DNA of 64,000 bases from Stramenopiles sp. TOSAG23-3 (taxonomy: Eukaryota): assembly GCA_900128585.1 (NCBI GenBank), contig LT642151.1, positions 1 through 64,000 of the forward strand. The letters run 5' to 3'. How positions within the stretch are numbered: the stretch's first letter is position 1; the number at the start of each line of letters is the position of its first letter. Made by a program: the position numbers and the translations under genes. This document shows, one piece after another, positions 24,501 through 61,789 of this stretch. The notes beneath the pieces are model-generated. The model ran no database searches, was not told the origin of the DNA, and saw only the letters and a list, made by a program, of their open reading frames with translations.

Positions 24501-27500
24501 CTTCTCGTTGGTGGTAACCAAAGCAAATTTCTCTGCTTCGTGCAATTTTTGTCTGTTTTCGAAATCTTCCTTGCTTTTGGAAATGTGGTCTTCTAACTTT
24601 TGTCGATATACCTCTATCTCACTGTTCTTTCCCGCAATTTCTGTTTCATTTTTTGATCGGCTGGACTGCAACTCGGACTCTACCTTTGACAATTTTGTGA
24701 CCGCATTCATGTGATCCATCTGGGCGGCTTCCAAAGCCTTTTTCAAATGTTGTATTCTAGATATCAAAACAGTGCTGTCAAATTCATCGTGCGTGTTGGG
24801 ATTTGAAACGTCGGCCACCGCGGGTGTTTCTTCCTGGGCGATCGTGGACGCAGGCCTGAATGCAACTTCCTTGTTGCCTGAGTCAAGACTTTCGCCGATC
24901 GGTTCCTGGGGCAATTGTGTGTTCGTCAGTGCCGGTGCCCCATCAAGAGTGGACAAGCCAGTCTGTTTTCGATCGCGGATTCTTTCAAGCTCATAAGCCG
25001 ATTTGGACAGCTTTTCGTTCAGCTCAGCGATCGTGCATTTGAAGGCGTTATTCTCTAATGTACAAAATTCTAGCTCTTCTTTGTTCCTTTGAGCCTCAAC
25101 GCGCAATCGCCCATTTTCTTGGTTCGTTTCATTCAAAGAGTTTTGCAACTCACTCACGTGTTTCTGAAAATACTGCATTTCGAAGTTGGGGACTGGTTCC
25201 TTCGTAGCCAAAGCACTTTCCCCTTCTTCCTTTATCTCGTTCAATTGGTTTCGAAAGAATTCGGCTTCTTGCCGAGACGCTGCAAGTGCTGTTCTCAGTG
25301 TGTCCACCTCCGCCTCGTTGCGATTGTTTTTCGTTTCAGGTACGGCCTCTGTTTCCGTCGATACGGTTGCCTGTGGGTTTGCACTCTTACGTAAATCTGC
25401 AAGCTCTTTCTGGGAGGCTGCCAAAGCCGCTTTTAGGGCAATCACATCGTATTTGTTTCGTTTTGGTTCCAATTTCCGTTCACCCCCAGCGTCTGTGGCA
25501 GTAGAAGCATTGGAACGTTGCGTTCCCTTGTCTACTCGGTTACGGTTCTGGTTCTGCACAGCTTCCAATTCAAGAAGCAGCGCAGCAATTTTATTTGCAT
25601 TTTCTAGTTGCAATTGTTCGTGGGTTTCCTTCAGAAGGATTACGGCATGCACATGCCTGTCATTCAAATCATTTAATTTTCTTGCCATTTCCTTCTCTTG
25701 AATTTCCTGGTCTTCTCTTACTTTCTTCAAAACTTCCTCCGGAACAGATTTTGTAGCCATATCTAGCTTTTGCTGGTAGGAATCCTGAGTGGAGGCCACC
25801 TGGGCTTTTAAACAGGAAGCAAGCTCTTCTGCACTTGCGAGTCTCTCTTTCAAAGTACTGTTTGACGCTCTCAAACCCGTTGCGGTGGTTTCTAATTTGG
25901 TTAGCAGCTCGCTCTTCGCAACATTGTCGTCCGCCATACGTCCCGATTGGTGCTTGAACACTTCTATTTCTTTTTGCATCCGTTTCCGTTCTTCCTCACG
26001 CTGTTGATCGATGGCCAAAATGTTGCTTTTAAGATCTTCGATTTGCGTCTTCAGCACCAACTCTCTACGTTCCATTTCACGGTGTTTTTTCTCTGCCTCA
26101 ATTATCTCTGAAGCCGCACTCTCTTGGGTGGTGCTAATAACGTCCTTTTGAAACGCAACCTTCTCCTCGAAATCTTCGCGCTGGGAAATTAGCGTTTTTT
26201 CCAAAGTCTCGGTCATTAGCTCAGCCCTAGCAGCTCTGGCGTCGGCATTTTTGCACGCTGCTTTAGTGTTTTCCAGTATTTTAAATACGTCCGCTTCGTC
26301 AACTGTAACACCAGTCTCGCTTCGCTCCCTTTTGGGTTCTTTCAAACCTCCATCTTTTCGTCGCTGAAACTGTCTGGCCAACGATTCTGCCCTCGATGCC
26401 CTGGCCTCTGCATCAGCAGCTATCATCTCGGCCCTTTGTAACATTTTTGCGACTCTGTCGTTTTCGTACATTAGCCTTTCATTTGTTTTTTGGAGCTGGT
26501 CGGATTCCATTTCGACGAACGCCTGGGTTCCGCTGTTGTTCGTAGTGGGAGAACTGGTCTGCGTGCCGGTAGACGGGTCGTCTTTGGACCTCCTGCTTTC
26601 TGGGACCAAGTCAGATTGAGTCCCGTGGGTTTTTCTACTCGGCGGTGGAGTCTGGGTGCCGCTAGATGAACCACTCGACAGATCGCTTTGAAGGCCTATA
26701 GAAAACGACGGGGATTTGGGCAGAGCGATTGCATCGACCCCTCTGTCCTCTGTTCCCATGATTGTGATCGGTCTATCCTCCGTTGTCGTCATCACGCCGG
26801 AACTAACTGTACGCGCTCTGGGGGACTGCGTGCTTGAATCCTTGGAAACAGCGGCTCCCCGACGTGGCGTTTGCGTCTCTATGCTTGCTATTTGGCCGTC
26901 CTTCAAATTACTCTGAAGCCCGACAGAATGCGTTGAAACTCTTGACGGGGTGCTCATGCTCTGGATAGGATGGTCGCCCCCCGCCGACGAATCGATCAGA
27001 AGTGGCCCGCCCGCCAGTTCGGATCTCGGAGACGACCATCGAACCATCATGGGTATATCTTCGTCTAGAATAGAGCTTGTAATCTCAGCACCGGCACTTG
27101 AGGGTCTCTTTTTAACAGGGGTTGACTCCGGGGTTTGCGTTCCCATGTTTTGCATAGCACATTTCAAATCTGTAAAGAACGCCAAGTCGCTTTGCAATCC
27201 AACCGAGGACGGCGATGCCTGGCTCATGGCACTCACTCTGCACGTTTCGCGCTGCGATTGCTTCAATTTACTGTCCTTGTCTGCTGTTTCTTGCATCGCC
27301 GAGACGTCTTCTAACATTTCCAAGTACGACTCCGAGCGCTGCTCGGCTTCACGAGCCCTTTTCAGGGCCAGATTCTTTTCTTCGATGGATAGGTCAAGCT
27401 TAACAGAAAAATCATCTAATTTCTGCTGCAGCGCCTTTTCGTTTTCTTCTTTCCACTTCATTTCCATTAACGTTTTCTCCGCCTCCTGCAGCTCGCTAAC

Positions 27501-29222
27501 AACCGCCGCATACATGGCTTCGCACGTGGATAAGGCTTCTCTTACTTGCAACTGTTCGCAGCTCTGCTTGGTCTCCGTACCACCGACCGCGGAGGTGCTT
27601 TGTGGCGCATCTCCGATTTTGCACATCTTTTTGAGGCGTACCTGGCTCTCCGAAAGCTGGAGGGCGTTCTCGTTCAGGAACGAAATGTAGCGTTCCAGGG
27701 CCGACTGTGACCTCTGCTTTTTCTTCCCCGCAACGATTTCTTTGAAAAACGAGAGCAGGTCTACTGGCTTGTAACCCCCAACATCGGCGAGGCTTTTGTG
27801 TGACGTTTGAATTTGGAGTTCTTTCCATAGCTCATCGCACCGCATGCGAAACATCCTATTTTGTTCCCGTTCTTTGTTCAAATCGTCCTCCACATGCGCC
27901 AATGCGCCGTGGTGATTCCTTCCCCCGTACAATTCTGCAGCGCCGACCACGTGCAGTTCGGACAGGTGGTTCTTTGTCAATTCCAAATCGTCTGGGCGCA
28001 GGGACCTATCGTACACCCGCTTTTTTCGGCCTTGAATCTCATCGTTTAGCACGGCAGATGTCTTTAGTATGCCCATTTTCCCGCTGGTGGACTGCGCTGG
28101 AAAGCGATCTTGGCGAACGGTCGTCCCCGTCTCGTCGACGGCACTCGAAAGGTGGGACACTGAAGCCGACTCTTTTGTGCGGTCCACCAAAATGCTCCCA
28201 GGGACGGATTCTATCGGGCCGATGGTCGAGTAGAAAGGGTCGTCGATGCGCGTAAACGCCAGCTGCTGCTCTAGCCCGGACACAACCTCCCCGGCCTTGA
28301 CAAGAGCGTGGGCCTTTTTGTCCAACAAAAGGGTCTTGGTCTCGAGCTCCAACGCGACCTTTTCCTCCCGTACCGACAGTCCCGCCAACGTGCCCCGGGC
28401 GGCATTCTTCACCTCGTCCATTTCCTGCGTCACCCTATGGGCGACCTCTTCCGCCAATTGTGACCGCTTTTTCTCCTCGCTCAGTGCCCCCTTCAAGTAG
28501 TCGATCTCGTCGTTTTGAAAGACCCTCCTGGCTTCTTCCTTGTCCTGTATCGTCACGGCGGTGCCGTCGAGGGTATCTAAAAACTGCAATTTGTACACGA
28601 TGAATATCCTGGCGTGAGGCGCCATGACACACGGGTTTCCACGGATGCTCAACGACTGCAGGTTGTTCATCTCCTGCAGCTTCTTTAGCTCTCCTATATT
28701 TTTTATCTTATTCCTGCATATTCTCAAACTGTACAGCCGGGGCAAAGCGGCCCCGAAGGCAGGCGGCAGGCTTTCGATACAGTTCCCGCTCAGGTTCAGG
28801 CGTTCCAAAAATTTCAAACACTCATAGTTTTCAATTCTCTTTATCCTATTGTCGGACAGGTTAAGCTCCTTCAAGCTGGCCAAAGCCGCGAAATTTTCCA
28901 TTCTCTCGACTAGGTTGTCGCTCAAGTCTAACAGCTCTAGGCGTGGGACAAAGCGGAGGTTTTCGATCTTGTAGACCCGCCGGTTGTCTTTCCGGTTGGG
29001 GCGAACGACCAACTCCGTGACACCCCCTAGTGGGCCTCTCACGACGCCAGTCCTTCTTCTAATCAGGGCTTCTGTCATGTATTCGGGAGACGGCCGGCCA
29101 CGTTCAGCAGCATTTTCAGCACTCTCAGCCTTAGCCCCCTCCTCCCCCTTCTTCTTTGTGTTCGTGCGCGCGTATGCACGCCCAAGAGACTCGTCAAACT
29201 CTCGCTGAAGTCGAATCTCCAT
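18561..29222 (-). CDS. CNTRL: Centriolin/CEP110-like LRR plus giant coiled-coil protein (~3,550 aa)
   Basis: YMTEALIRR, KIENL, LRRs, GNPC..IFIVYKLQFLDTLDGTAVTIQDKEEA, TKTLLLDKK and LEQQLAFTRID parallel the centriolin N-terminus. First ATG at 29222. Confidence 0.75.
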   Translation of the reverse strand: MEIRLQREFDESLGRAYARTNTKKKGEEGAKAESAENAAERGRPSPEYMTEALIRRRTGVVRGPLGGVTELVVRPNRKDNRRVYKIENLRFVPRLELLDLSDNLVERMENFAALASLKELNLSDNRIKRIENYECLKFLERLNLSGNCIESLPPAFGAALPRLYSLRICRNKIKNIGELKKLQEMNNLQSLSIRGNPCVMAPHARIFIVYKLQFLDTLDGTAVTIQDKEEARRVFQNDEIDYLKGALSEEKKRSQLAEEVAHRVTQEMDEVKNAARGTLAGLSVREEKVALELETKTLLLDKKAHALVKAGEVVSGLEQQLAFTRIDDPFYSTIGPIESVPGSILVDRTKESASVSHLSSAVDETGTTVRQDRFPAQSTSGKMGILKTSAVLNDEIQGRKKRVYDRSLRPDDLELTKNHLSELHVVGAAELYGGRNHHGALAHVEDDLNKEREQNRMFRMRCDELWKELQIQTSHKSLADVGGYKPVDLLSFFKEIVAGKKKQRSQSALERYISFLNENALQLSESQVRLKKMCKIGDAPQSTSAVGGTETKQSCEQLQVREALSTCEAMYAAVVSELQEAEKTLMEMKWKEENEKALQQKLDDFSVKLDLSIEEKNLALKRAREAEQRSESYLEMLEDVSAMQETADKDSKLKQSQRETCRVSAMSQASPSSVGLQSDLAFFTDLKCAMQNMGTQTPESTPVKKRPSSAGAEITSSILDEDIPMMVRWSSPRSELAGGPLLIDSSAGGDHPIQSMSTPSRVSTHSVGLQSNLKDGQIASIETQTPRRGAAVSKDSSTQSPRARTVSSGVMTTTEDRPITIMGTEDRGVDAIALPKSPSFSIGLQSDLSSGSSSGTQTPPPSRKTHGTQSDLVPESRRSKDDPSTGTQTSSPTTNNSGTQAFVEMESDQLQKTNERLMYENDRVAKMLQRAEMIAADAEARASRAESLARQFQRRKDGGLKEPKRERSETGVTVDEADVFKILENTKAACKNADARAARAELMTETLEKTLISQREDFEEKVAFQKDVISTTQESAASEIIEAEKKHREMERRELVLKTQIEDLKSNILAIDQQREEERKRMQKEIEVFKHQSGRMADDNVAKSELLTKLETTATGLRASNSTLKERLASAEELASCLKAQVASTQDSYQQKLDMATKSVPEEVLKKVREDQEIQEKEMARKLNDLNDRHVHAVILLKETHEQLQLENANKIAALLLELEAVQNQNRNRVDKGTQRSNASTATDAGGERKLEPKRNKYDVIALKAALAASQKELADLRKSANPQATVSTETEAVPETKNNRNEAEVDTLRTALAASRQEAEFFRNQLNEIKEEGESALATKEPVPNFEMQYFQKHVSELQNSLNETNQENGRLRVEAQRNKEELEFCTLENNAFKCTIAELNEKLSKSAYELERIRDRKQTGLSTLDGAPALTNTQLPQEPIGESLDSGNKEVAFRPASTIAQEETPAVADVSNPNTHDEFDSTVLISRIQHLKKALEAAQMDHMNAVTKLSKVESELQSSRSKNETEIAGKNSEIEVYRQKLEDHISKSKEDFENRQKLHEAEKFALVTTNEKRDMARSVAEDRLKEELNAKVLSITELKTSLDELRQIISTLKIENESLGKEKIFIASQNDEEVHGLRAKASNDKLEIHAMRSKYVDKEEELHIMTKSLELANDKILVLKKHLSSLEDKHATQSTAVSSVTEIIQTFEETLDGLRSDLDKERKKRIIAENNLQHASDASEELRRRMQDLKSKMVERGDKELLSRVKALEESNKILAIENAETRAFKSVYENQIKQGKETEKELTKSLLEMNMQFQKLGQENAMLQSKGRGEHVFIQELKNQSLQLLDSTKTHGRILGQLQEGVAELDSAQSKAIEELGDLKDFKQISSTEISAIVKSQKQKIEELQASCDTLVRENMTLSSQVATFEIEQRAAKEDMAIGPVSDAVAKPIENVAAELEERNAEKQAFVSKINSLKSELKSSREDFDRRLEERDNQLQEVVQSFKVNSELMSKTKKENYDTLQQSFAGKQKSFELGLVNLQEKLSASEDALSGEREENKMRIENLQNIKANLQKQLIDREELLNAMTATKEKLQRDVDRCRLDLKASDSRVAELKETCASLEDRVNAATAKLKSARADKEEIQDNLESANAMFAEEVGELNGKVLTLEKAHKLFVRGKSELEARMEQVTLEKIEFQAAFQRLKEDRSSSNEEQKRMCENLKQSFEIAESALAIEKGKNEELESKLERITTTAFTHGTIIENLENKCSNISLQLSESQSLVFKYEGKLSDALVENEKLREARDANEDDIARLQNETVLLQKEKSLLASKNEVDMKAMEKRIVNLQSSDKSMLAEQQLLLLKETHAASALSFKSTIESLESKLEASVKDHKQELAEEESQKRRAEAELESAIREKNDVSTKLAVATDKLKERESELKSAQEGFFEARNTYSMEIDGLKQDIKEIGLAKKESGGLENMVGKSEWDTLNKKMVDLEVKLRQETGEVTKLKAAYNEEKKNVFKLNEELQHLKKYSERAEAKIGALVDSKIIQTTTSSSESKAIQTVPPDIAHAATETTIGTGAEAKLVQATCANECKDTQTARLSQSNAATGTIDFAALLVDSSTMTQPDVPYDDRSERPTRCLGILASGENKGQQCVNSSAAYDNGFCGQHQSQLSKPRSVPALVKMFESKTKATMTPTIETKNTSSTANFSQVDADAEPAQVVSSGTMTTVEKDEVVSKAHIGIIVSTANVSKSTLTESRRGVDAETQADSENSYVERYSAPNARGSALSNTKSVGTSPCFEEGEKAKKKVTDVGTLASCSTVSSSTNTQVRPDVEVGTTASVETVSAAVNTDDILLNTESVGTSPCFEEGGKAEKKVTDVGTLASCSTASSSTNTLARPDVEVGTTASVETVSAAVNTDDILLLSSENLEIVNDQVLDELSAMKIRAMGAEANVSKEIVARKCAEDALKSANERCEAIQQEFFKLQTEHLFENNAVGLCSPVQSDGPTASADGHKEKDSVECAEYETKRLALEERAEAAEEALGEEFQARVGVEERLRQATAHISELEKIAQSSVAAEVVTRYSIDHVSIGTLTDMSLCAVEQVDTGLQTEYNSSDVGTSASLAEFPPTPQEDVGLQTDAALVDAGTSATVTRIKPAERADVGLQTENKSADVGTIANVELSTSSTTTAAAPFNLTADVGVSVTADTNTVSVCTESDASVDGTFADAHKEPHDPPMVISDIDKAASNTQETMIQIQRMASETEKLKSAARKAAASVETKDAYDNEKDAMLKELQFYEGSHEDESITIDRDNVDASVKRESSEGLKHVSAEDAVSAAKRIREHLELLRKADDKIATASASRKELLKLRETERKNEERVRVKDASLLAKQSKPAVHPAQRRHRSKQLKERDQILTPVFSDNKAVGWIINRDNNKWSARSTNSKAHGKGEGEPMVRLHRSGSVEISMQLDSIRRYQESQQSSSREKNRAYVTPAVHRSRAYGKQNSTVGGRPTPTHHLNNENLVNSQSSPYSGQQSVGARAYSLRQRLKKQTAFLRK
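20461..20858 (-). repeat. Intragenic tandem duplication, 201-bp (67-aa) period
   Basis: AGAATATCATC(G/A)GTATTTACTGCAGCAGAGACC at 20461 and 20662. The protein repeat SVGTSPCFEEG...SAAVNTDDILL occurs twice. Confidence 0.95.
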
Positions 29223-30580
29223 CGCCCACCCGCCTTTTTTACCACCCCTCGTACGCTGCGTATGAACAACAAAAGGAGAACTCACTGACAAGGTGACCCC
29301 ACAGTTTTCAATCGAGGTATTGTGTGCACACACCTTTCAAACCCTTGGAAGATGTAAAGAACAAAAAATGGAAATATGTAAAGGGGTTAAAAGTTCTCCA
29401 CACACTTTCACTTGGTTTTAATACAAAAAAATATTATTATTATTATTATATTTATGATATATTTTTTTATTAAAAAAAAAAAAAGAGTAGTTGTTGTTGG
29501 TTTGTTTTTTTCTTCTCTTGAAAATAATATAATAATAATAAAAAAATAAATAATAATAACATAATAATAACAAGGAGGAAGGAGGTAAATATTTTCTTTT
29601 AAATAATATTTTTTTTTTCCTTCTTCTTCTCTTTCTTCTTCTTCTTCTTCTTCTTTCTTCTTCATTTTCAAATCTATTATTTATTTAAAGGAACAAACAC
29701 TATACATATATATACTTAAAGCAATTCCTATTTAAAAAAATCAAATTTTAAAATGGCGCCAACCTCAATCCTAACATAAAAACATAAAACTCTGAAAATC
29801 GATTTATTTATTCCAGTTATGTGGCTTGTATAAAAAATACGATTGATGACCATGATGGGAGTAGATAGGAAACAATCCAGGATAATTTTTTCTATTAAAA
29901 TATGCATGCTGTATATATATATTGATTCAATGACGTAAGTGAGGAGCGATCGTACTTAATTTGTATTCTATTAAATATGAGGTCTGTAGTCCTTCGTTTT
30001 ATTATTAATCCTTTGTATTTTAAATTAGATATTACCTATTGTGGTTCCCAATACGGTAATACCGGTAGAACTGGAAGAATGCATTTTTAGTTATTATTAG
30101 TTATAAAGTAAAGAGAAGTATAAAATATAAGAATTAATAGTCTGTTCTAATATATTATTATTTTGACTACTATATATAGGAATACAATAGAGATATATTA
30201 AATATGGGGACCGCACATTTTTTTTTATTCGTTACTGGTTTGTATACGTTAATACCTGTAATGTAGTAACCATGATGTTCGATTATAATAATTGTTTAGA
30301 TAGAGTTGTTTACCTATACTCGTATAGCTTTTAATAATTAATATTTTTATAAGAGAGAAGACAGACTGGCGGCGGCGAGACATGACATATAGATACATAT
30401 CCATTCACTCATTCCACCGATGGCACATTTGTTTTACATAATCGTTCGAATTCTATTGTGAATCCCATGGGCCTGTGTTTGCATTTGCGGGAACACTTCG
30501 TAGGTATTGTCATTCAAAACACGAAGTTAACGTTTCCACGTTTGAACAACGTAGTTCTGTCCAACCGATCGTATACAATC

Positions 30581-52022: not shown

Positions 52023-53900
52023 ATGTGGACAAAACAATCGCCGACGAGGAAACGGGGAAGGCGACGGTCCACGAAAACAATTCCAAAGGTGCGGACGGAT
52101 GCATCAAACGTACTTGGTGAAAGGACATTGAGCTGCAAAAAAATACCTCGGTCGCCATCGTGTACAACTTCACCAACCATCTCTCCTCCTCCCCTAAAAC
52201 TGTCCCCTTCCCATTCGGTTAGTACATCGTTCTGGACGTCTCCAAGGTTGCAAAACTCGCCGCGTCGACCCGAAGTCAACCATGTAGACGGGGACAATGC
52301 GCCGAGCAACAAGTCGCCATTAAAGGCCCGAAGGGTCGTCTCGGTGAAGAAACTGTTGGCACAAGATCAACCCAACAACCAGCAAGAGCAGGGCAGTGAG
52401 CCTGGACAAAAGGCAACTTTGGGCAACGAGAAACGCAACGAGCAACGCAACGAGAAACGCCGGTCGTCCATTCACCTATTGCAGGCAGGCGCAGACGGCG
52501 CCCACAAGGAAGGAAATTCCCATGTTCACGTTCTGAAGGAGAAATTAATGCATAAAATGGCCACCCTGGCGATGGATGACGACGAAGCAGTTCACACTGC
52601 AAATGTAGAATTGAGCATGCTAGACGTGCACGACCTGATCTCTACGCTAGCAGAGTTTGAGTCTATGCTGTCCATGGGGAACGTTCATGTGGACGACTTC
52701 GACGATGTCAGCACAAAAGAAATTATTGGAGAGTACTCCCCTAGTACTAAATCAAACAAGACGTTCGCGATGCGGAAATGGGGAAAAGCGTTAAAGAGCA
52801 TTTCAAACAAAATACACCCCGACAAGAGAAAAGACCACGTTCAGTTTTTCAAATCGCTAAAAGTCCTCAAGGTGCCGGCCAGCACCATCAAAACTGCCCT
52901 AGGCCTTTTGCAAGATTTTGGAAAATGGCATTTAGACATTCTAGAACTTGGCGAAATATGCGGTAAAGAGACGTTTGCTTTCTTGGCACATTTGGTCTGT
53001 CAGAGCCTCCCGTTGGATCTAGACTCCATCAATGTAGACCCAGAGGTCCTGCACAACTACATGGAGGCGATTGCAAGGCATTACCGTGAAGACAACCCGT
53101 ACCACAATGCGCTGCATGGCGCAGACGTTGGGCATGCCGTGTTTCATTTTTTGACAGTCGAACATTGGGACGAATTCATGAAGCCCCTCGAGGTGTTTAG
53201 CTGTGTTATGGCCGGGTTCTTGCACGACTGTGGTCACCCAGGCGTGAACAACGCTTACCTCGTCAACACATCTCACATGCTGGCACTGCGGTACCATGAT
53301 CGCTCGCCATTAGAAAACATGCATGCGGCGATAGCAATGGAGACTTTGAAAGAGGATGGGTGCAATTTTATGGCCACCATGACGCGGGGGAGCAGGAAAA
53401 CGTTTCGTAGTATTCTAATTGAAACCATCCTTGGGACCGACAACGCGCTGCACTTCGACCACATCATGAGACTGCAAGATAACTTGATGAAAGGCCATCA
53501 GAAAGACAACCCCTTTACAGTGGGCGACGAGGGCAGTCGAATGTTTATTCTGCAGCTGCTCCTGCATTTGTGCGATTTGTCCAACCCTGCGAAACCATTG
53601 TCAACTTATTTGCAGTGGTGCGACCTCGTAATGGCAGAATTTCACATGCTTGGAGACAAAGAGAAAGAAGCCGGGTTGCCCGTGGGACATATTTTTAAAA
53701 GGGAGACCCCTTTGCACGATGTGCAAATTGGGTTTGTAAAGTATTTGGTGAATCCGTTCTACTTAGAGATGAACAAAATTGGCGGCGTTGACCTGAAAAC
53801 ACAACTTTCGTGTATAGACATTAACCTTAAGTACTTTCAGGACATCAAGAAGCTAAAGGAGGAAGAGGAAAAGAAGGAGAACGACGCAAAGAAGGAGTAA
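52023..53900 (+). CDS. Class I 3',5'-cyclic nucleotide phosphodiesterase
   Basis: NPYHNALHGADV, HDCGHPGVNNAYL, SPLENMH, ILGTD, HLCDLSNPAK, EFHMLGDKEK, QIGF. Confidence 0.95.
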   Translation: MWTKQSPTRKRGRRRSTKTIPKVRTDASNVLGERTLSCKKIPRSPSCTTSPTISPPPLKLSPSHSVSTSFWTSPRLQNSPRRPEVNHVDGDNAPSNKSPLKARRVVSVKKLLAQDQPNNQQEQGSEPGQKATLGNEKRNEQRNEKRRSSIHLLQAGADGAHKEGNSHVHVLKEKLMHKMATLAMDDDEAVHTANVELSMLDVHDLISTLAEFESMLSMGNVHVDDFDDVSTKEIIGEYSPSTKSNKTFAMRKWGKALKSISNKIHPDKRKDHVQFFKSLKVLKVPASTIKTALGLLQDFGKWHLDILELGEICGKETFAFLAHLVCQSLPLDLDSINVDPEVLHNYMEAIARHYREDNPYHNALHGADVGHAVFHFLTVEHWDEFMKPLEVFSCVMAGFLHDCGHPGVNNAYLVNTSHMLALRYHDRSPLENMHAAIAMETLKEDGCNFMATMTRGSRKTFRSILIETILGTDNALHFDHIMRLQDNLMKGHQKDNPFTVGDEGSRMFILQLLLHLCDLSNPAKPLSTYLQWCDLVMAEFHMLGDKEKEAGLPVGHIFKRETPLHDVQIGFVKYLVNPFYLEMNKIGGVDLKTQLSCIDINLKYFQDIKKLKEEEEKKENDAKKE

Positions 53901-54276: not shown

Positions 54277-57200
54277 TTATTCAATCATCGGCATGTACGG
54301 CTGGGCATACAATGCAGCGTCCGCTTCGTCTTTCAGCCCTTTCAACCACTCCTTTCGCTCAAAATGATCCTGTATAATGCCCTCATCGTCGCTTTCTGTG
54401 CCTGGAAGCGCTTCCACACCAAGCCCTGAAACTGCTTCCCCCGCCGCCAATGCCTCTTCTCGGATGCAATGGTTGTACACTTTTTCGTACGTGACTTGAT
54501 CTTTCTGCACCTTATTCACCAATTTTCCGACGAGTTCTGCACTTTTCTGTGGGTGAAGCAAGTCATGAAGGCCAGGAGAAGACAACTTAACCGCAGACTG
54601 GTACATGTTTTCGCTTTGTATGGATTTCAATGCCGATGCATCGATGTGCCCACGGCCATCTCTGTCGAAAACCTGAACAAAAAGGCGCACCGACCGTGCA
54701 ATGAGATTTGGAAGCTCAATGTGTGCACACTCGCGGACGCCCTCCCACGGGCTTTCAATAGTTTCGATCCCTTTTCGAGTACGCTTCAACTTGCATGCAT
54801 CGTACAGCGTAAACATAGCGGCGAACAAACGTTTTTGCAAAGCATTCGCAAGCGATTCAAAGCGATTGATAAGGTTTCTGATTCCAAGCGCTATGTTATC
54901 TTTATGCACAGCATCTTTTTTTCGTAAGACGACGACCTTTTCGAAATCGACCAACAAGCAGCGGATATTAGGCTTAAAATCGTCTGCATCATATGCTATT
55001 AACAAGCTCGACCCAAAAAAGTCCATGTTGTTATGTTTTGATTGTAGTGATTCAAGCCGCGTCTTTAACGTTGAAACGATTTCTCTCAGCAGATCTATGC
55101 GAACGATTGTTTTGCTGGAACCTAGCGTCAGGAAATGCTCAAAAGAGCAGTCAGTCTCGTCGTCTGCGCCAATATCAACAAACTGCTCAAAGTCAGGGTT
55201 CCACATGCGCATGCCTACCAGTTCGTATGCATCACCCAGTCCTAATTTTTTTCCTTGCTTGTCAGAGCCTATCTTTACGTCCATTATACAAGGGCTCGAG
55301 AAACCTTTTGAAATATTTTCTATACTAACGTACTTGACAGCGTGATGATAGCAAATGCCACCAAATCTTGGAATAATCCTTCTAATAGCAGTGTTTGTTG
55401 CCGCCATGTGCTCGTAAAACGCTTCCTCCACCTCGGTTGTGTGCTTGCCGATGAATCGATCGGTCTTGTTCGGCCAAACAAAGCGCACACTCCCGTCCAC
55501 CGTCTTTTCCTTACCCCCAATGCGATCAATGTACTCCCGGCTGACGTTATCATTTCGCGATACCTTCCCGCTTCCTTGCTTCTGTCTAACCAGGTACTTT
55601 TCGTTCAAGCCGCATAAAAATACTCGAAGTTCGTCCTGGCTGATTTCGTCCATGGAAGCGGTGCACTTTACGGGCAATATGGTCAAAGTTGACCAGTACC
55701 ATTCGGGCTCCAGAAGAACCCTAGCCGTTGCACAGAGTTCAAGCTTTTCCTTAACAATGGGATCGGTTACGTAATGGATTATGTTCACCTTCTTTGTGGG
55801 CGCATACTTGTGCAAATCCAACTTTTCAACACGCATGATGGTGTACAAATTGTTCAGTGCCTGATTCAAATCGTACTCTGGGCTTGCTCTTGGGTATTGT
55901 TTCACGTCCGTTCGAAGCTTGACGTGCCCCCATCCCGCGCACAGACCGGCACAATAAATGACCATTTCGTCGTAGGTAATTTTGATTTCTATCGCATCTA
56001 GTGCTTCCTCCAGCGTTTGGCCCTCTGGCAGTACGTAGGAATGTGACGCGAGTTTCTTTGATTCCAAGGCCAGCAGAGTCTGCTTCAAACAAAGGAAAAG
56101 ATCACGGTCCTGCTCCCGCAGCTGAAGAATAGGCGTTAAGGTTGCAATTTCAGACAAAGCATAAGGCTCGTCCAGCTTGTCAATTATTGATTGCAAGGGT
56201 ACAGGCGCATCTTTTGAAAACCCAGAAATATCATAAAATGCGTCCAAAGTAGCAGAAATTTCTTTCAGCATTTTCATCGCTTCCTTCACGTTCAAAACTA
56301 CTGAATTCTGGGCTGCCACGACACCGCTGCAAAACCCACGAACTTCTTCGAACGTGACAAAGCCATCGTTGTCGGTATCGATAGCCATTAACGTTGCCCA
56401 GAATGCGCGGGGTTTTAGCAGAGGTTGTAGTGGGGCGCATTTGCGAATTATGTCTCGAATATTGTCTTTGTGCAAACCATGCATCAAATCAACTTTTGTT
56501 ATTTTACGCTCTGCCCCGTGGCCCATGGCCTCGAACAATTCCATCAGTATGGACTTTAAATCGTTGTGCACGTCTTTTTGAGCTTCCCTGTTCTCTAAAT
56601 CAAAATCAGATTCTTCCAGGGCGCTCATAGCCAAATCGCTCTTGACGGCAATGTCTTTGCTCGCGTCCATTGAGTACATGCCTGTACAGAACATACGCAA
56701 CTCCTGAAAATCTACGCTTCCGTCATGGTTTGTGTCCATTGCATTAAAAGTTTCCTTGTAAGTCCGGGGGTGCAAAAGGGGTTTGAGAGGGGGGCACTCA
56801 TTTATCATTTCGCTCACGGCGGGTTTACCTAGCGACATCATGATGTCTTTTTTTGAGATTTTCCCTTGCCCATGCTTGTCAATTGTGTCGAACAACTCCT
56901 GCAGCGAATTTTCCAATTCCCGAACGTCGCTGTAAACATTTGCAAAGTGCTTCTTGCGCTCCTGGGTCCGCTTAACAGCAATCGCCCGCTCTTGACGACC
57001 GCGGGCTATGTGCTGGATTTTGGCCGCCGCGTTCTTTTGTTTTACTAGCATTTGTCGGTCTGCCTTGCCACGTTGGAGTTTTTGGATCTTCGTCGCAGCA
57101 AGGGCTCGCTGCTCTTCTTCAAGTGCTTCCGTGTCGTCCTGATCAGTTTCCATAATGTCGTTGATGTGGCTCAAAACATCGTCGTCTCCAGGTTTAATTT

Positions 57201-60200
57201 CCGAGGCATCTGTAATTGAAACTTGCACACGGCGAAGCGATTTTTCTCTTCGCTTTTCAAGTAGCAGTTCCCGCCTCGTCATTTGACTAACGGGCTTGTT
57301 GCGCTTTGCAACCTTTTCCTCCATCTCAAGCCGGTCGCTGTCCTTGAGCGCTTTCAAAGCTTGTTGGTGGGCCATTTCGGCCTCGATCCTCATTTCCTCC
57401 TCTCGCTCCTTCAGTTTTGCCACCTTTGCTTCCTCAATACGCCGCTCCTCTTCTAAAGCCTTGTCCCGAGCTTCCTGTATCTGCCGTTCTTCCTCTTCTT
57501 TTTCGGCCAATAACTTTTCTGCAGCCATTTTTGCATCGTGCTCCTCTTTCCTACGATTTTCTTCAAATTCACGCTGCGCGCGAGCCTCGTCATCAGCGAC
57601 TTCTTTGGCTTCCTTAACCTTTAACTGAGCCCGTCGCTTCGCAATTTCCGCTTCCTGTGCTTCAAGCTTTGCAGCGTGTGCTTCTTCATCCGCTAGTTTT
57701 TCCATGGCGCGTGCTTCCTCCTCTTCTTTGTGGTACAGGTCCAGCGCATTCTCTGCGTCTCTCTCCGCCTTCTCCGCGTTCTTCAACGACTCGTGAGCAC
57801 GCTGCCTCGACAACCGGGCTTCCCGCTCCTCTTTCTCTAAAATTGCTCGCGCGTACTCACTAGTGTCACCGCGCCTTTCCATGTCCTCCCGGGCACGGGT
57901 GGCCTCTTCTTCCTCCGCAGCGGCTTCTTTGAGCGCCACCTCAGCTTCCCGGCGTGCTATTCCTGCAAACCGAGCTTTTTCTTGGGCTATCTTTTTTGCC
58001 CTGTCGGCTTCGATTCTCTCCTTAAGGGCAAGGGCGGCATCTTTTTCTGCAAGGGCAATGGCAGCCTCAGCTTCCTTCTGTTCTTTCAGGGCCTCCGCGG
58101 TGGCTTCATCTAGTTCATCGTTGCCTTCTCCGAACGATCCAGTGGGGGCCGCCATTCCTATAGACGCCCATTTTTCACGAAAGTGTTCGTCCGATGCCGT
58201 AACGGCTTCTAGGACCCAGTCGCAGAGGGGGGCAAATGCGCAGTATTTTTCATCTTCCACCAATGTCTCGGGAGAAAAACGAGGGTGGTGGGTCACACGC
58301 TGCAACCGATGAAGGGTTTCCTCGGTGACGCTGGTAGCGTTAAACTTTCGTAAGCGATCACGAAATTCGGGCTCATTCACAATACGTTGCGCCACCAACC
58401 ACGTAGGGTTTTCTCCGACAAGCATGCACACCGACCCCAATATTCGCATTATCAACGGCGGGGGCTTTGGCCCATCCGCCGTGCACAGGGCAGCGATGGC
58501 CCGCTCGTCGAGTTGATCGAACGTCGCGCTTTTCACGGGAACCGCCCGGCCAGGGACGCCAATATCTGAGCTTGGAGTCTTTACCATTGCCCGAAGTCGC
58601 CTTGCCTGCTCCGCTTGCTGCCGTTGCTTTGCTCTCATCAGCCATGGCTGAGGCCCGGTGGACTTTTCGGGAGACGGGACGGGAATGGACGGCGTGCTGA
58701 TTTCTTTCTGAGGGGCCTTCGGCGATTTTTTCTTGAGAATTTGTACTGCCCCTGGCTTGTCCAATTCCAATTTTAACGTTTTGTCCAGGGACGGGACCGG
58801 TGATAACTTCTGTTTTAACGGCGACTTGCCGGTCTTCTTCTTCTTCTTTGCTGAACCGGCCTGCAACTTCTTCGCGTGTCGTCCCTTTTGCTTTTCCCTC
58901 TCTATCCTCTCTTTCTCGATGACCGCAAGCTCTTGGTATTTGATGTACCCTGATGAGCGGTGGTCAAGCTCTTGAAGCAGCACGTTTCGCTCGTTTTCGG
59001 ACCCTGAGAACCCTACTGCCACGAGCGCGTCAGAAAAGTCGTCCCTACTGACAACACCGCGCTTTTCACCGTCCCGTTTCATGCACTCGGCCAGCAGTCC
59101 CGTGATTTTGGAGTCTACAATTTTGCCCAGCTCTTTGAACCCAGCCTCTGCCTCCAACGCTTCCCGGCTCTTCACCGCCCCGCTTCGGACGGCGGCGTTG
59201 ACGGCGACACGGGCACGCTGGGCGTCGAGCGTGTCGGGCTTTTCGAACCCACCCCCAGTGCGCTTGACGGAGGTGTCGTTTTTTTTCTTTTTTGGTGCTC
59301 CAACGTACGTGCCATCGTCCCCTTCGCTATTTAAATCTTGCCGGGGCCTCATCTCGTACTCGTTGCCGTTCCACGGCGGCCGCTCCCTCAAAACGTCCTT
59401 TTTCTTTTTTCTCCTTGAACGCTTCTTGCGCTGGGTGCCGTTCGAAAAAGTACTATTTTCTTTCAGCGTTGGCAACGGGCCGGACGACGGGAGGACAATA
59501 CTGCGCTCTGCCAATTCTCCCGGCGATATGGACGTGCTCGGCGGGGGGCTCCCGCCGACTTTAGGGCTGTTGCTTCCCGAGCTGCTCGTGGGCGAAAATT
59601 GGCGGCGGCTGTTGTTCGGGTTTTCAATCTCTTCTTTCCACCCCATGTTCTGCGCGACGTTTGGGGGCACCAGCCACTTCGGAACGCTTTGCTTTTCATC
59701 TTTCTTCTTTCCCCAAACTTCGTAGTGGGCATCGTCGCTTTTGATCATCTGTTGCGTGTACGGTGTCTTCATCAGCTTCTTGAGCTTTTTCGTAACCGCC
59801 CTCCTCTTCCTCCTCCTGTGCCTGCTTTCCCCAAAAGACGCAGTGGACATTCCTGCGGAGCTGGCGATACTGGATAAACTATCCGGGGCGTCTATCCCCC
59901 CCGCGCCCAGGGCGAGCAGGCTGGCCCCTTGGCGAGCCCTCGCTTTGTTCTGCAATAGGACAGCCCGCTCTTCCAAAAGTTTTGATTTTTCCGTCTCGAT
60001 GGACGACAGCAAGTGTGCCTTTCGTTCCATCTCTTTCACCAGGGCGCGGTTCTTCCTTATCTTCTCGCGCTGCCACTCATTAAACGCGTTCACGGCCGCT
60101 TGTCGCTTGGCTTCCTTCTCGGCCAAGTCCTGCTTCGACGTGTCCGGCTTCTTCCCTTTTTTTTTCTGCAGCACTTGCTTCTCCTTGTTCCATACCTTCC

Positions 60201-60507
60201 AGCGCTCTTCTGCGTCCTTCTTCCGGTTTGCCCGTTTCCGGGCCTTCGCGGCCCTCTCCTCCTCGGTCTCCGGGACGGTCGTCATGGACATTGGCAAACG
60301 GCCGGTGCTGGACCGTGATATCTTCGATTTCTTCAGCTTTGCGTTCCATGTCTTTGCCATTTCCTTTGTGACTGTATTGTTCTTGATTTTCTGTTTCAGC
60401 GATAGATCTGTCTTTATCTTTCCACGCTTTCTTCGCGGGACGAGCAGCCGCTCTGCCCACTTGTCGTTTGGCTTTAACGACTTTTCAACTAACCCGAGGT
60501 ACGCCAT
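54277..60507 (-). CDS. Multidomain protein: EF-hand-like, dynein stalk MTBD-like, charged helix, 2x IQ, EF-hands, inositol polyphosphate kinase (IPK) domain
   Basis: MTBD-like KPPPLIMRILGSVCMLVGENPTWLVAQRIVNEPEF..LCDWV. IQ motifs IQKLQRGK and IQHIARGR. EF-hands DTNHDGSVDFQE and DTDNDGFVTFEE. IPK motifs EEAFYE, IPRFGG, PCIMDVKIG, SSLL, LVDF. First ATG at 60507. Confidence 0.8.
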   Translation of the reverse strand: MAYLGLVEKSLKPNDKWAERLLVPRRKRGKIKTDLSLKQKIKNNTVTKEMAKTWNAKLKKSKISRSSTGRLPMSMTTVPETEEERAAKARKRANRKKDAEERWKVWNKEKQVLQKKKGKKPDTSKQDLAEKEAKRQAAVNAFNEWQREKIRKNRALVKEMERKAHLLSSIETEKSKLLEERAVLLQNKARARQGASLLALGAGGIDAPDSLSSIASSAGMSTASFGESRHRRRKRRAVTKKLKKLMKTPYTQQMIKSDDAHYEVWGKKKDEKQSVPKWLVPPNVAQNMGWKEEIENPNNSRRQFSPTSSSGSNSPKVGGSPPPSTSISPGELAERSIVLPSSGPLPTLKENSTFSNGTQRKKRSRRKKKKDVLRERPPWNGNEYEMRPRQDLNSEGDDGTYVGAPKKKKNDTSVKRTGGGFEKPDTLDAQRARVAVNAAVRSGAVKSREALEAEAGFKELGKIVDSKITGLLAECMKRDGEKRGVVSRDDFSDALVAVGFSGSENERNVLLQELDHRSSGYIKYQELAVIEKERIEREKQKGRHAKKLQAGSAKKKKKTGKSPLKQKLSPVPSLDKTLKLELDKPGAVQILKKKSPKAPQKEISTPSIPVPSPEKSTGPQPWLMRAKQRQQAEQARRLRAMVKTPSSDIGVPGRAVPVKSATFDQLDERAIAALCTADGPKPPPLIMRILGSVCMLVGENPTWLVAQRIVNEPEFRDRLRKFNATSVTEETLHRLQRVTHHPRFSPETLVEDEKYCAFAPLCDWVLEAVTASDEHFREKWASIGMAAPTGSFGEGNDELDEATAEALKEQKEAEAAIALAEKDAALALKERIEADRAKKIAQEKARFAGIARREAEVALKEAAAEEEEATRAREDMERRGDTSEYARAILEKEEREARLSRQRAHESLKNAEKAERDAENALDLYHKEEEEARAMEKLADEEAHAAKLEAQEAEIAKRRAQLKVKEAKEVADDEARAQREFEENRRKEEHDAKMAAEKLLAEKEEEERQIQEARDKALEEERRIEEAKVAKLKEREEEMRIEAEMAHQQALKALKDSDRLEMEEKVAKRNKPVSQMTRRELLLEKRREKSLRRVQVSITDASEIKPGDDDVLSHINDIMETDQDDTEALEEEQRALAATKIQKLQRGKADRQMLVKQKNAAAKIQHIARGRQERAIAVKRTQERKKHFANVYSDVRELENSLQELFDTIDKHGQGKISKKDIMMSLGKPAVSEMINECPPLKPLLHPRTYKETFNAMDTNHDGSVDFQELRMFCTGMYSMDASKDIAVKSDLAMSALEESDFDLENREAQKDVHNDLKSILMELFEAMGHGAERKITKVDLMHGLHKDNIRDIIRKCAPLQPLLKPRAFWATLMAIDTDNDGFVTFEEVRGFCSGVVAAQNSVVLNVKEAMKMLKEISATLDAFYDISGFSKDAPVPLQSIIDKLDEPYALSEIATLTPILQLREQDRDLFLCLKQTLLALESKKLASHSYVLPEGQTLEEALDAIEIKITYDEMVIYCAGLCAGWGHVKLRTDVKQYPRASPEYDLNQALNNLYTIMRVEKLDLHKYAPTKKVNIIHYVTDPIVKEKLELCATARVLLEPEWYWSTLTILPVKCTASMDEISQDELRVFLCGLNEKYLVRQKQGSGKVSRNDNVSREYIDRIGGKEKTVDGSVRFVWPNKTDRFIGKHTTEVEEAFYEHMAATNTAIRRIIPRFGGICYHHAVKYVSIENISKGFSSPCIMDVKIGSDKQGKKLGLGDAYELVGMRMWNPDFEQFVDIGADDETDCSFEHFLTLGSSKTIVRIDLLREIVSTLKTRLESLQSKHNNMDFFGSSLLIAYDADDFKPNIRCLLVDFEKVVVLRKKDAVHKDNIALGIRNLINRFESLANALQKRLFAAMFTLYDACKLKRTRKGIETIESPWEGVRECAHIELPNLIARSVRLFVQVFDRDGRGHIDASALKSIQSENMYQSAVKLSSPGLHDLLHPQKSAELVGKLVNKVQKDQVTYEKVYNHCIREEALAAGEAVSGLGVEALPGTESDDEGIIQDHFERKEWLKGLKDEADAALYAQPYMPMIE

Positions 60508-61789
60508 TATTCCTGACCCGATGTACCCACTGCGTGCGACGCACAATGTCGGAGGAGATAGAATTCAAAGGCAAGAGGGAACAACAAAGACGGGATTGTT
60601 CCGGTTTGTACAAAACAATATGGTGTCTATAAAATGTGTACCTCTTTTTACTAAAATAGTCTTTGGTTGATCAATAATTCTTGTGGGGGAGCATATTTGT
60701 AGTCAATATGTTTCAGCGGATAAAATAGTTCTCGTACTTCTTCTTCTTCGCTAAAAATTATTATTATTATTATAATAAAAAAAAATAATAAAAAAAGAAA
60801 GATGATGATGATGTTGCCATGTTATGTGTAAAGCTTTATGATGAAATATTTTATAACGGTGGGATTGGATTGTTGTTGGAGGGGGAAGGAAGGAAGGGAA
60901 GGAAGGGGGTGATTTGTTTTTGTTTTGGGATTTCATTCTTCTCAGATTTCACAGGAAGAATAGTGTGTATAAATTTATGTTAATAAAATAGATAGGGTTA
61001 ATAATGTATTATAAGTATATTTTCATGTATACTATTCATTTTATAAATATGGGAATCGGGGGGGGGGGGGGTAATAATATTTTCTTTTTCTCTTCTATCG
61101 CTCTCTGTCCTTATTCACCTGTAGAATGCACATAATTAAACCGATGCTATGCAATGTATATTTGGGTATTTACATAGTATTACATAGAAATATCATGAAA
61201 TAATATCGAGATAGCAAGCGTACATTTCAAAATACCCGTCATATCATTGAATGCTATGATGACCTATTTTAAAAATGGGACCAACGGCTTTCCTTTTTTC
61301 CTTTCCTTTCCCACACAAACAAAAACAAAAACAAAAACAAAAACAAAAACAAATATCAATACAAGTATATTAATACTACTTATATATGTATTCTTATTAT
61401 ATATTAAAACCTATTTATTTATCTTTAAAAGAAGGAAAGATGATTTTCTCTTTCTATAAAATTAAAACTAGAAGTGGGGGGGAGGGCTGGTGTTGTTTTT
61501 GTTTGTTTGTAATAATACAGGCTTGTATTATGGTATAATATAATACGTACGTCAGAAACAGAGAATAGGTAGGAAGAGAATAATGGAAGTAAATAGGATT
61601 GAGAAATTTTTAAATGGATGAAGAAACTAATTGCAAGATTGGTCAATTAATCGATTCAGATATGTACTACGTGAACATGGTTATAAAGGTGAAAAGTTAT
61701 CCGTGCGTTTACGTGCCATTTGAAACGAAACCAGTCAGTAGACAAATTAAGAAAGTTTAATTGCTATAAATTACTTTAAATTGTTTAAG

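Follow-up and report, generated by a model that had tools for sequence, protein, structure and literature searches.

A protist gene that joins a motorless dynein-type microtubule-binding domain to calcium-sensing modules and an inositol polyphosphate kinase

The gene and its integrity

The window analysed here comprises the first 64,000 nucleotides of contig LT642151.1 from Stramenopiles sp. TOSAG23-3 (assembly GCA_900128585.1) and has the look of an intron-poor eukaryotic genome, with long open reading frames (ORFs) on both strands. Toward its end lies a gene (54277..60507, minus strand) of 2,076 codons and a stop codon (54277–54279), without an intron. An earlier note on this DNA, made from its letters alone, had read the gene as an inositol polyphosphate kinase (IPK) fused to a stand-alone dynein stalk head, a charged helix, IQ motifs and EF-hands, and had proposed a calcium/calmodulin-regulated kinase tethered to microtubules. 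Every one of these elements was recovered in its place, and the boundary drawn by the note at 60507 coincides with the most likely start codon. The results below support the architecture, in which a motorless dynein-type microtubule-binding domain (MTBD), a charged helix, IQ motifs, EF-hands and an IPK domain are encoded by one gene, as real and conserved. The gene is a real, conserved and intron-free gene of a marine protist and codes for a non-motor protein.

According to the ORF list and the translation, the frame is uninterrupted for 2,089 codons (54277..60546, minus strand) and opens with TTG; the first ATG, at 60507, is codon 14. Translation most likely starts at this ATG, because an identical database protein (P0002) is 2,076 aa long and three orthologues start at an aligned methionine. 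Residue numbers given here count from the TTG of the 2,089-codon ORF, whereas the coding sequence from the ATG specifies 2,076 aa. A whole-protein Pfam scan returned eight families at E ≤ 1, none of them an AAA or dynein motor family, which agrees with the claim in the earlier note that the protein has no AAA+ ring. A degenerate dynein remnant was considered as an alternative description and rejected, since the motor family is absent from that scan.

Related sequences fall into clusters of 12, 8, 3 and 29 members drawn from ENA, JGI/IMG, Logan, NCBI and EukProt, several of them full-length. The protein's own cluster has 12 members, including full-length 2,076-aa copies from ENA, JGI/IMG and EukProt. 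The three orthologue clusters, P0003, P0004 and P0005, are 54%, 46% and 46% identical to the window protein over 97–98% of aa 600–2089, share its Pfam content and align with it collinearly from end to end. A metagenome scan for relatives found one locus, a related contig (L001) with one ORF of 2,299 codons.

Public sequencing data also contain the gene. The stretch, or part of it, is present in 20 of the 24 runs listed, which come from 12 studies with the possible source included; 16 of the 20 hold at least half of its words, and nearly all carry a marine or seawater label. In four RNA libraries, contigs cover 26, 29, 18 and 24 of the 30 bins of the stretch, mostly at an identity of at least 99%, and the sole joint listed among them falls outside the ORF, in the 3′ flank. 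Some bins are uncovered in some runs, and cover ends near both ends of the ORF, from which we conclude nothing. Taken together, the RNA contigs favour expression without splicing and do not prove a single transcript.

Some observations count against the interpretation given here. The searches yielded just four relatives of nearly full length. The RNA contigs reach 1,428 nt at most, none of them extends from the MTBD to the IPK domain, and RNA libraries may also contain DNA. When the IPK region was compared with shorter proteins (30–1,147 aa), the sole match was a protein of 632 aa (P0191), 45% identical over that region, which begins inside the second of the EF-hand modules described below (R2) and has no MTBD, a record that may stem from a split gene call or represent a shorter form. 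A corresponding comparison of the MTBD segment with proteins of 441–2,000 aa found no relative, a result that the search tool itself grades as weak evidence.

These points bear on the possibility, raised in the earlier note, that the long ORF is a chimera of assembly or gene modelling, in which a dynein fragment has been joined to an unrelated kinase gene. Such an origin would fit both the gap between the two domains in the RNA contigs and a GC content that varies from 0.44 to 0.56 along the gene in 2-kb windows. It is nevertheless very unlikely, given that the same 2,076-aa protein recurs in separate ENA, JGI/IMG and EukProt assemblies, that the order of parts is unchanged in three collinear orthologues at 46–54% identity, and that a separate contig carries its counterpart as a single ORF of 2,299 codons. 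The absence of any frame interruption over 2,089 codons, and of the dynein motor family anywhere in the protein, also speak against it.

A dynein head outside dynein

The MTBD (58147..58536, minus strand; aa 671–800) consists of helices H1–H6 with a short CC2-like extension and no flap insert. The earlier note had assigned the segment 58200–58520, corresponding to aa 676–783, to the dynein stalk head, and both sequence and predicted structure uphold this assignment. Searching the whole protein against PDB sequences with phmmer gave 23 matches at E ≤ 0.1, of which the best five were dynein heavy-chain MTBDs: three DNAH6 entries (1.7e-7 to 4.1e-7), a Chlamydomonas chain (4.6e-7) and dynein-c (2RR7, 4.1e-6). 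The Pfam MT family (PF12777) matched at 25.1 bits against a cut-off of 24 (E 1.1e-5) when aa 600–850 were scanned alone, the match spanning only profile positions 153–208 of 344. A HMMER search of the MTBD against 1.84 billion representative sequences retrieved 325 relatives at E ≤ 1e-3, bona fide dyneins among them, and in a protein-cluster atlas the domain led to MT-family clusters, all below 0.9.

An AlphaFold2 (AF2) model of the MTBD, built on a 29-row alignment, has a mean pLDDT of 84.1 and reaches at least 95 in its core. In a Foldseek search against the PDB, each of the 35 rows shown was either a dynein entry (MTBD, stalk or motor) or a chain exceeding 2,700 residues in a dynein or axoneme complex. 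VIA-align placed 11 dynein entries at Z 11.0–14.9, followed by 8.0 and 7.5 and then by values of at most 5.2. The best superpositions were on the microtubule-bound MTBD of DNAH7 (Z 14.9, rmsd 3.1 Å, 125 residues), the mouse dynein-1 MTBD (Z 14.7, rmsd 2.0 Å, 120 residues) and an outer-arm MTBD (Z 14.1, rmsd 2.0 Å, 115 residues). A Foldseek-independent search of 48,161 representative chains likewise returned dynein MTBD or stalk entries as its top five (Z 12.0–14.7), and unrelated structures in the two Z-score searches reached 5.2–5.7 or below. Identity to dynein MTBDs in the superpositions is 15–25%. For the predicted model, the assignment to the dynein MTBD fold is solid.

Two further structures, 9ya2_L (Z 8.0; Toxoplasma intraconoidal microtubule 1) and 9fqr_Xl (Z 8.2; bovine sperm doublet), were considered as relatives of the MTBD and rejected, these scores being too low for a helical bundle. 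Together with 9e5c_2e (T. brucei doublet, Z 6.9), they align to the model over about 120–166 residues; all three may be microtubule-surface binders with a similar bundle, and no homology is claimed. The Toxoplasma paper names dynein in its reference list only.

In PMC6629372, the microtubule contact of the dynein MTBD is ascribed to H1, H3 and H6, its affinity to movement of H1 and the CC1 arm, and the flap is given as 13 residues. Consistent with the absence of a flap, the alignment to flap-bearing dynein-c pairs 114 residues of the query with 127 of the chain. The superpositions begin at aa 671 (model residue 72). Upstream, a basic linker (58537..58902, minus strand; aa 549–670, net charge +22) ends with a conserved Arg-rich helix (aa 634–656, model residues 35–57, pLDDT 82–87), which the superpositions do not place as CC1 and which is followed by a low-confidence loop. 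Before the linker and an intervening degenerate EF-hand pair lies the N-terminal region (59197..60507, minus strand; aa 14–450), which is strongly basic by charge (net +52), partly of low complexity and, by its invariant columns, contains conserved motifs; it has no sequence match in the PDB. Antisense ORFs of up to 309 aa, such as 59741–60670 on the plus strand, overlap the low-complexity K/R/E-rich part of the gene and appear to arise from its composition rather than to be genes.

Identity to the three orthologues differs by region: 85, 76 and 75% for the MTBD, 60, 58 and 59% for the charged helix, 65, 55 and 53% for EF-hand modules R1–R2, 52, 47 and 49% for the IPK domain and 31, 24 and 22% for the C-terminus, against 55, 48 and 48% overall. 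The MTBD is thus under the strongest constraint of all regions, which suggests a very conserved binding partner, such as tubulin.

Some features of the domain count against microtubule binding. The CC1 arm is absent, H1 being parted from the helix at aa 634–656 by the low-confidence loop; the Pfam MT match is marginal and went unreported in full-length scans of the window protein, P0003 and P0005; and the MTBD core carries a net charge of −2 to −6 across the four orthologues. These features, including the loss of the registry switch with CC1, and the 15–25% identity to dynein MTBDs would also suit a domain derived from an MTBD and re-used for a partner other than the lattice, whether another cytoskeletal element, a membrane or the protein itself, in which case the kinase would still be calcium-regulated but would not be tethered to microtubules. 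We regard such a re-use as unlikely. The fold match is specific to MTBDs and lies far above other helical bundles, and the degree of conservation is what a partner as invariant as tubulin would lead one to expect. The slightly acidic core is preceded by long basic segments, the linker and the N-terminal region, of a kind that binds tubulin tails. Finally, tandem arrays of MTBDs in other non-dynein proteins, described next, would fit a periodic lattice.

A stand-alone MTBD is not unique to this gene. Of 150 listed MTBD relatives, 76 were scanned against Pfam, and 21 of these contain two to five stretches matching the MT profile (profile positions ~55–260) without a dynein AAA family, whereas true dynein fragments among the scanned relatives carry AAA_7, AAA_8 or AAA_9. 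The tandem-MTBD proteins are 300–1,150 aa long (P0044–P0052, P0057, P0060, P0066–P0072, P0077, P0087, P0097, P0102 and P0113); one of them, P0048, joins a WD40 propeller to two MTBD units, and P0050 is marked as a complete ORF in an MMETSP marine protist transcriptome. Other combinations are EF-hands with an MTBD (P0078, from EukProt) and DUF4062 and TPR with an MTBD in a protein of 1,945 aa that EukProt labels Cyanophora paradoxa (P0109). None of the scanned non-dynein MTBD proteins contains an IPK domain. Single-domain scores to the window MTBD are 43–67 bits for non-dynein proteins (66.9 for P0045) and 43–56 for true dyneins, and this similarity singles out no dynein class as its source. 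As judged by these profile matches, non-dynein MTBD proteins are widespread.

The earlier note knew of no description of this architecture, and we found none either: in the full-text literature searched, which covers few subscription journals and no supplements, no paper was found that describes a dynein MTBD in any protein other than a dynein heavy chain, or one joined to an IPK. Judging by titles and the opening lines of abstracts, the papers that use the Pfam MT family name all appear to concern dynein genes or to be general surveys. A 2024 survey of IP3 3-kinase evolution (PMC11000326) makes no mention of EF-hand, dynein, microtubule, protist, stramenopil or domain architecture.

Spacer, calcium modules, kinase domain and surroundings

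The MTBD is followed by a charged helix of about 280 residues (57292..58131, minus strand; aa 806–1085), recognised by its composition, its periodicity and the modelled helix. The segment consists of 24% E, 21% A, 11% K and 10.5% R, with P and G nearly absent and E, K and R together making up 42–58% of each 50 residues; the helix modelled from aa 806 has a pLDDT of 94–97. The E/K/R/A-rich composition reported in the earlier note is thus borne out, with the correction that the helix shows no heptad periodicity and does not look like an ordinary coiled coil: the 3.5-residue hydrophobic periodicity was not above that of shuffled sequences, and opposite-charge pairs at i,i+3/4 are in excess (z 3.0). 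Because the heptad signal is missing and salt-bridge pairs are enriched, the segment is taken as a probable spacer formed by a single alpha-helix and less likely as an ordinary dimeric coiled coil. An alanine content of 21% is unusual for the ER/K class of single alpha-helices. The motif RGDTSEYA at aa 892–899 is invariant and may be a hinge.

Downstream of the helix lies a basic stretch of net charge +13 (56947..57105, minus strand) with two IQ-consensus motifs at aa 1154–1167 and 1177–1190. The strict consensus, [FILV]Qxxx[RK]Gxxx[RK], is matched at aa 1154 and again at aa 1177, 23 residues apart, and two such matches occurred in none of 5,000 shuffled sequences; this is the usual spacing of IQ motifs in myosin lever arms. 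Both motifs are kept in P0004 and P0005 and one in P0003, the second of which misses the strict consensus. The two IQ motifs described in the earlier note therefore stand as consensus matches, while in the profile search the Pfam IQ family (PF00612) stays below its cut-off of 20.3 bits, at 13.8 for the window protein, 16.3 for P0005 and 14.3 for P0003, which speaks against a calmodulin-type switch at this site.

The EF-hands proposed in the earlier note are well founded (EF-hand_7, E 2.2e-18, 66.8 bits against 30) and turned out to be more numerous than listed there. Two EF-hand pair modules adjoin the IQ segment: R1 (56674..56931, minus strand; aa 1206–1291), with the canonical loop DTNHDGSVDFQE at aa 1271, and R2 (56317..56571, minus strand; aa 1326–1410), with the canonical loop DTDNDGFVTFEE at aa 1390. 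Both canonical 12-residue loops are kept in four of four orthologues. A profile hidden Markov model (HMM) built from R1 and R2 of the four orthologues detected a degenerate EF module directly before the kinase (55606..55872, minus strand; aa 1559–1647, i-E 3.9e-9) and a weak EF-like module at the C-terminus (54466..54672, minus strand; aa 1959–2027), which scores an i-E of 0.11 in the window protein and 5.9e-5 in P0004, with EF-hand_6 at E 0.13. Ahead of the MTBD, a degenerate EF-hand pair (58903..59196, minus strand; aa 451–548) includes a match to EF-hand_8 (aa 496–540, E 7.6e-11) and has no canonical loop by regular expression. Apart from the weak EF-hand_6, Pfam at E ≤ 5 returned nothing in the N-terminal 457 aa, in aa 1416–1660 or in the C-terminus. 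P0004 (aa 344–421) and P0005 (aa 334–411) carry an extra N-terminal EF pair module with a canonical loop, absent from the window protein and P0003.

With its own EF-hand sensors, the protein could possibly dispense with calmodulin. The reverse arrangement, in which a microtubule-bound scaffold recruits calmodulin or a light chain through its IQ motifs, the EF-hands are mostly structural and free calmodulin exerts control, is conceivable though doubtful: two consensus motifs 23 residues apart and the degeneracy of most EF modules would suit it, but the two canonical loops are retained in all four orthologues, the Pfam IQ scores lie under the cut-off, and the second motif of P0003 falls outside the strict consensus. 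A complex prediction pairing the IQ segment (aa 1138–1200) with the EF modules (aa 1201–1415) scored 0.00 against a mark of 0.34; the fold of the partner being uncertain, this weighs neither way.

The IPK catalytic domain (54823..55461, minus strand; about aa 1696–1908) belongs to Pfam PF03770 (E 7.3e-15, 55.8 bits against a cut-off of 22.2), and P0003 and P0005 cover positions 1–189 of the 190 in this profile. It contains PCIMDVKIG (aa 1752–1760), GSSLLIAYD (aa 1845–1853) and VDF (aa 1866–1868), corresponding to the IPK-family motifs PxxxDxKxG, SSLL(x)YD and (I/V)DF, the last with its metal-binding Asp. Residues P1752, D1756, K1758, G1760, S1846, S1847, L1849, D1853, D1867 and F1868 are invariant in all five aligned sequences. 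On this alignment the domain keeps every catalytic motif, and the IPK domain with PxxxDxKxG, SLL and VDF motifs recognised in the earlier note is confirmed.

Among PDB sequences, the best matches of the domain were EhIP6KA (2e-6), IP3K-A (9e-4, N-lobe), IPMK (about 2e-3) and a Terrestrivirus kinase (3.5e-3), with which its central part is collinear (E 0.024). The nearest solved relatives thus appear, at weak E-values, to be compact IP6K-type kinases, and the analogy to IP3 3-kinases drawn in the earlier note is a loose one.

Three properties tell against a confident functional assignment of the domain: the E-values behind its subfamily placement are weak (2e-6 to 0.024); the stretch from DxKxG to GMR is only 17 residues long, divergent and matches nothing well; and the AF2 model, built from five sequences, is of low confidence (pLDDT 52.0). 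Foldseek ranks 1–47 for this low-confidence model are all IPMK, IP3K, IP6K or Terrestrivirus entries, at a TM-score of about 0.4, which lends weak support. The short, divergent stretch and the poor model would also be expected if the substrate of the domain were a different one, for instance a lipid or a protein-bound phosphate, or if the domain were a regulatory pseudo-enzyme in a structural microtubule-associated protein (MAP), and its close relatives are its own orthologues only, with one match among proteins of 30–1,147 aa. We consider either of these improbable, as the ATP, Mg and catalytic motifs are all invariant in five of five sequences, PF03770 is matched at 55.8 bits, and EhIP6KA and the Terrestrivirus kinase, compact enzymes of similar length whose PDB entries are titled as complexes with inositol phosphates, align collinearly.

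The neighbours of the gene in the window include a class I cyclic-nucleotide phosphodiesterase, a PP2C, an eIF4E, an EF-hand NADPH-oxidase-like reductase and a GBP-type GTPase. Scans for Rfam families and for tRNAs returned no match anywhere in the window. The phosphodiesterase (52023–53900, plus strand; 625 aa) lies tail-to-tail with the kinase gene and ends 376 bp before its stop codon. The NADPH-oxidase-like protein (14732–16963, plus strand; 743 aa) combines an EF-hand pair at its N-terminus with ferric reductase domains that bind FAD and NAD. A single ORF of 3,590 codons (18561–29333, minus strand) has N-terminal LRR_9/LRR_4 matches and no other Pfam family at E ≤ 1e-5.

Proposed function and comparison with known systems

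We propose that the protein is a Ca2+-gated inositol phosphate kinase held on microtubules by its MTBD, a reading that rests on the domain content and its conservation and to which we assign a probability of roughly 0.55. The MTBD, aided by the very basic segments that precede it, would dock the protein on the microtubule lattice. Binding would be constitutive, and a regulated on-off cycle unlikely, because the CC1 arm, which moves H1 in dynein, is missing. The presumed single alpha-helix would act as a semi-rigid spacer and keep the catalytic end ~40 nm away from the microtubule, at 0.15 nm for each of its 280 residues. Calcium binding at the canonical loops of R1 and R2 may, in concert with the IQ segment, switch the adjacent kinase; the IQ segment would be gripped by calmodulin or a light chain or else, in the manner of calcium-dependent protein kinases (CDPKs), by EF modules of the protein itself. 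The kinase would then phosphorylate a soluble inositol phosphate. That the microtubules concerned are axonemal, rather than cortical or cytoplasmic, has about one chance in three, nothing in the results pointing specifically to the axoneme.

The MTBD is commonly viewed as a part of the motor, with an affinity that the stalk controls. Its conservation in a protein that has neither CC1 nor a motor would mean that the dynein head is usable as a free-standing docking module, and the window gene, along with the non-dynein proteins that have one to five MTBD units, would amount to a set of natural constructs for studying the head without registry control. More tentatively, the dynein head may be an autonomous domain that docks many non-motor proteins in protists, here placing a Ca2+-gated kinase that makes inositol phosphates or pyrophosphates ~40 nm off the lattice, at the end of a single alpha-helix, for local axonemal or cortical signals.

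A cytoskeleton-targeted, calcium-controlled IPK is already known in ITPKA, which is targeted to F-actin; what appears to be added here is the re-use of the dynein head as a free-standing domain. If the proposed function is right, the protein would be an independently built microtubule counterpart of ITPKA with its own calcium sensors, and would allow spatially confined synthesis of inositol phosphates along microtubules in response to calcium.

Compared with dynein heavy chains, the window protein shares the same H1–H6 bundle, as in 6RZA (DNAH7), 3ERR and 6RZB (dynein-1), 2RR7 (dynein-c) and 6L4P (outer-arm gamma), at Z 12–14.9 and rmsd 2.0–3.2 Å over 115–125 residues and with detectable sequence similarity. 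In contrast to those chains, its MTBD does not sit at the tip of a CC1/CC2 stalk; the CC1 arm, AAA+ ring, linker and tail are all missing, and the domain leads instead into a long charged helix without a heptad signal.

For the arrangement of spacer and sensors, two known systems offer analogies. In CDPKs, a kinase is fused to EF-hand sensors and to an adjacent helix that the sensors can grip, and in some myosins a charged single alpha-helix beside IQ motifs acts as a stiff spacer. The likeness to CDPKs and myosin lever arms is one of function only, as the window protein has neither a protein-kinase nor a myosin motor domain.

The compact IP6K-type kinases, EhIP6KA (4O4B, 8OMI) and the Terrestrivirus kinase (8T8V), are the best PDB sequence relatives of the IPK domain, being collinear with it and having a similarly small domain. 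They are, however, stand-alone enzymes of ~250 aa, whereas the window IPK lies at the end of a 2,076-aa protein and has VDFEK in place of the IDFAH of EhIP6KA.

The large helical InsP3-binding lobe of IP3 3-kinases would set the animal enzymes apart from the window protein, in which the putative inositol phosphate-binding region is much shorter. In overall plan, the animal ITPKA/B/C enzymes likewise combine an IPK domain with a cytoskeleton-targeting part and Ca2+/calmodulin control, the targeting and control of the window protein being those proposed here. ITPKA is described as belonging to Ca2+/calmodulin signalling and as binding F-actin (PMC10500224, PMC5884490, PMC13364712). ITPKA reaches F-actin through a short linear motif, whereas the window protein would reach microtubules through a folded dynein domain and carries its EF-hands built in.

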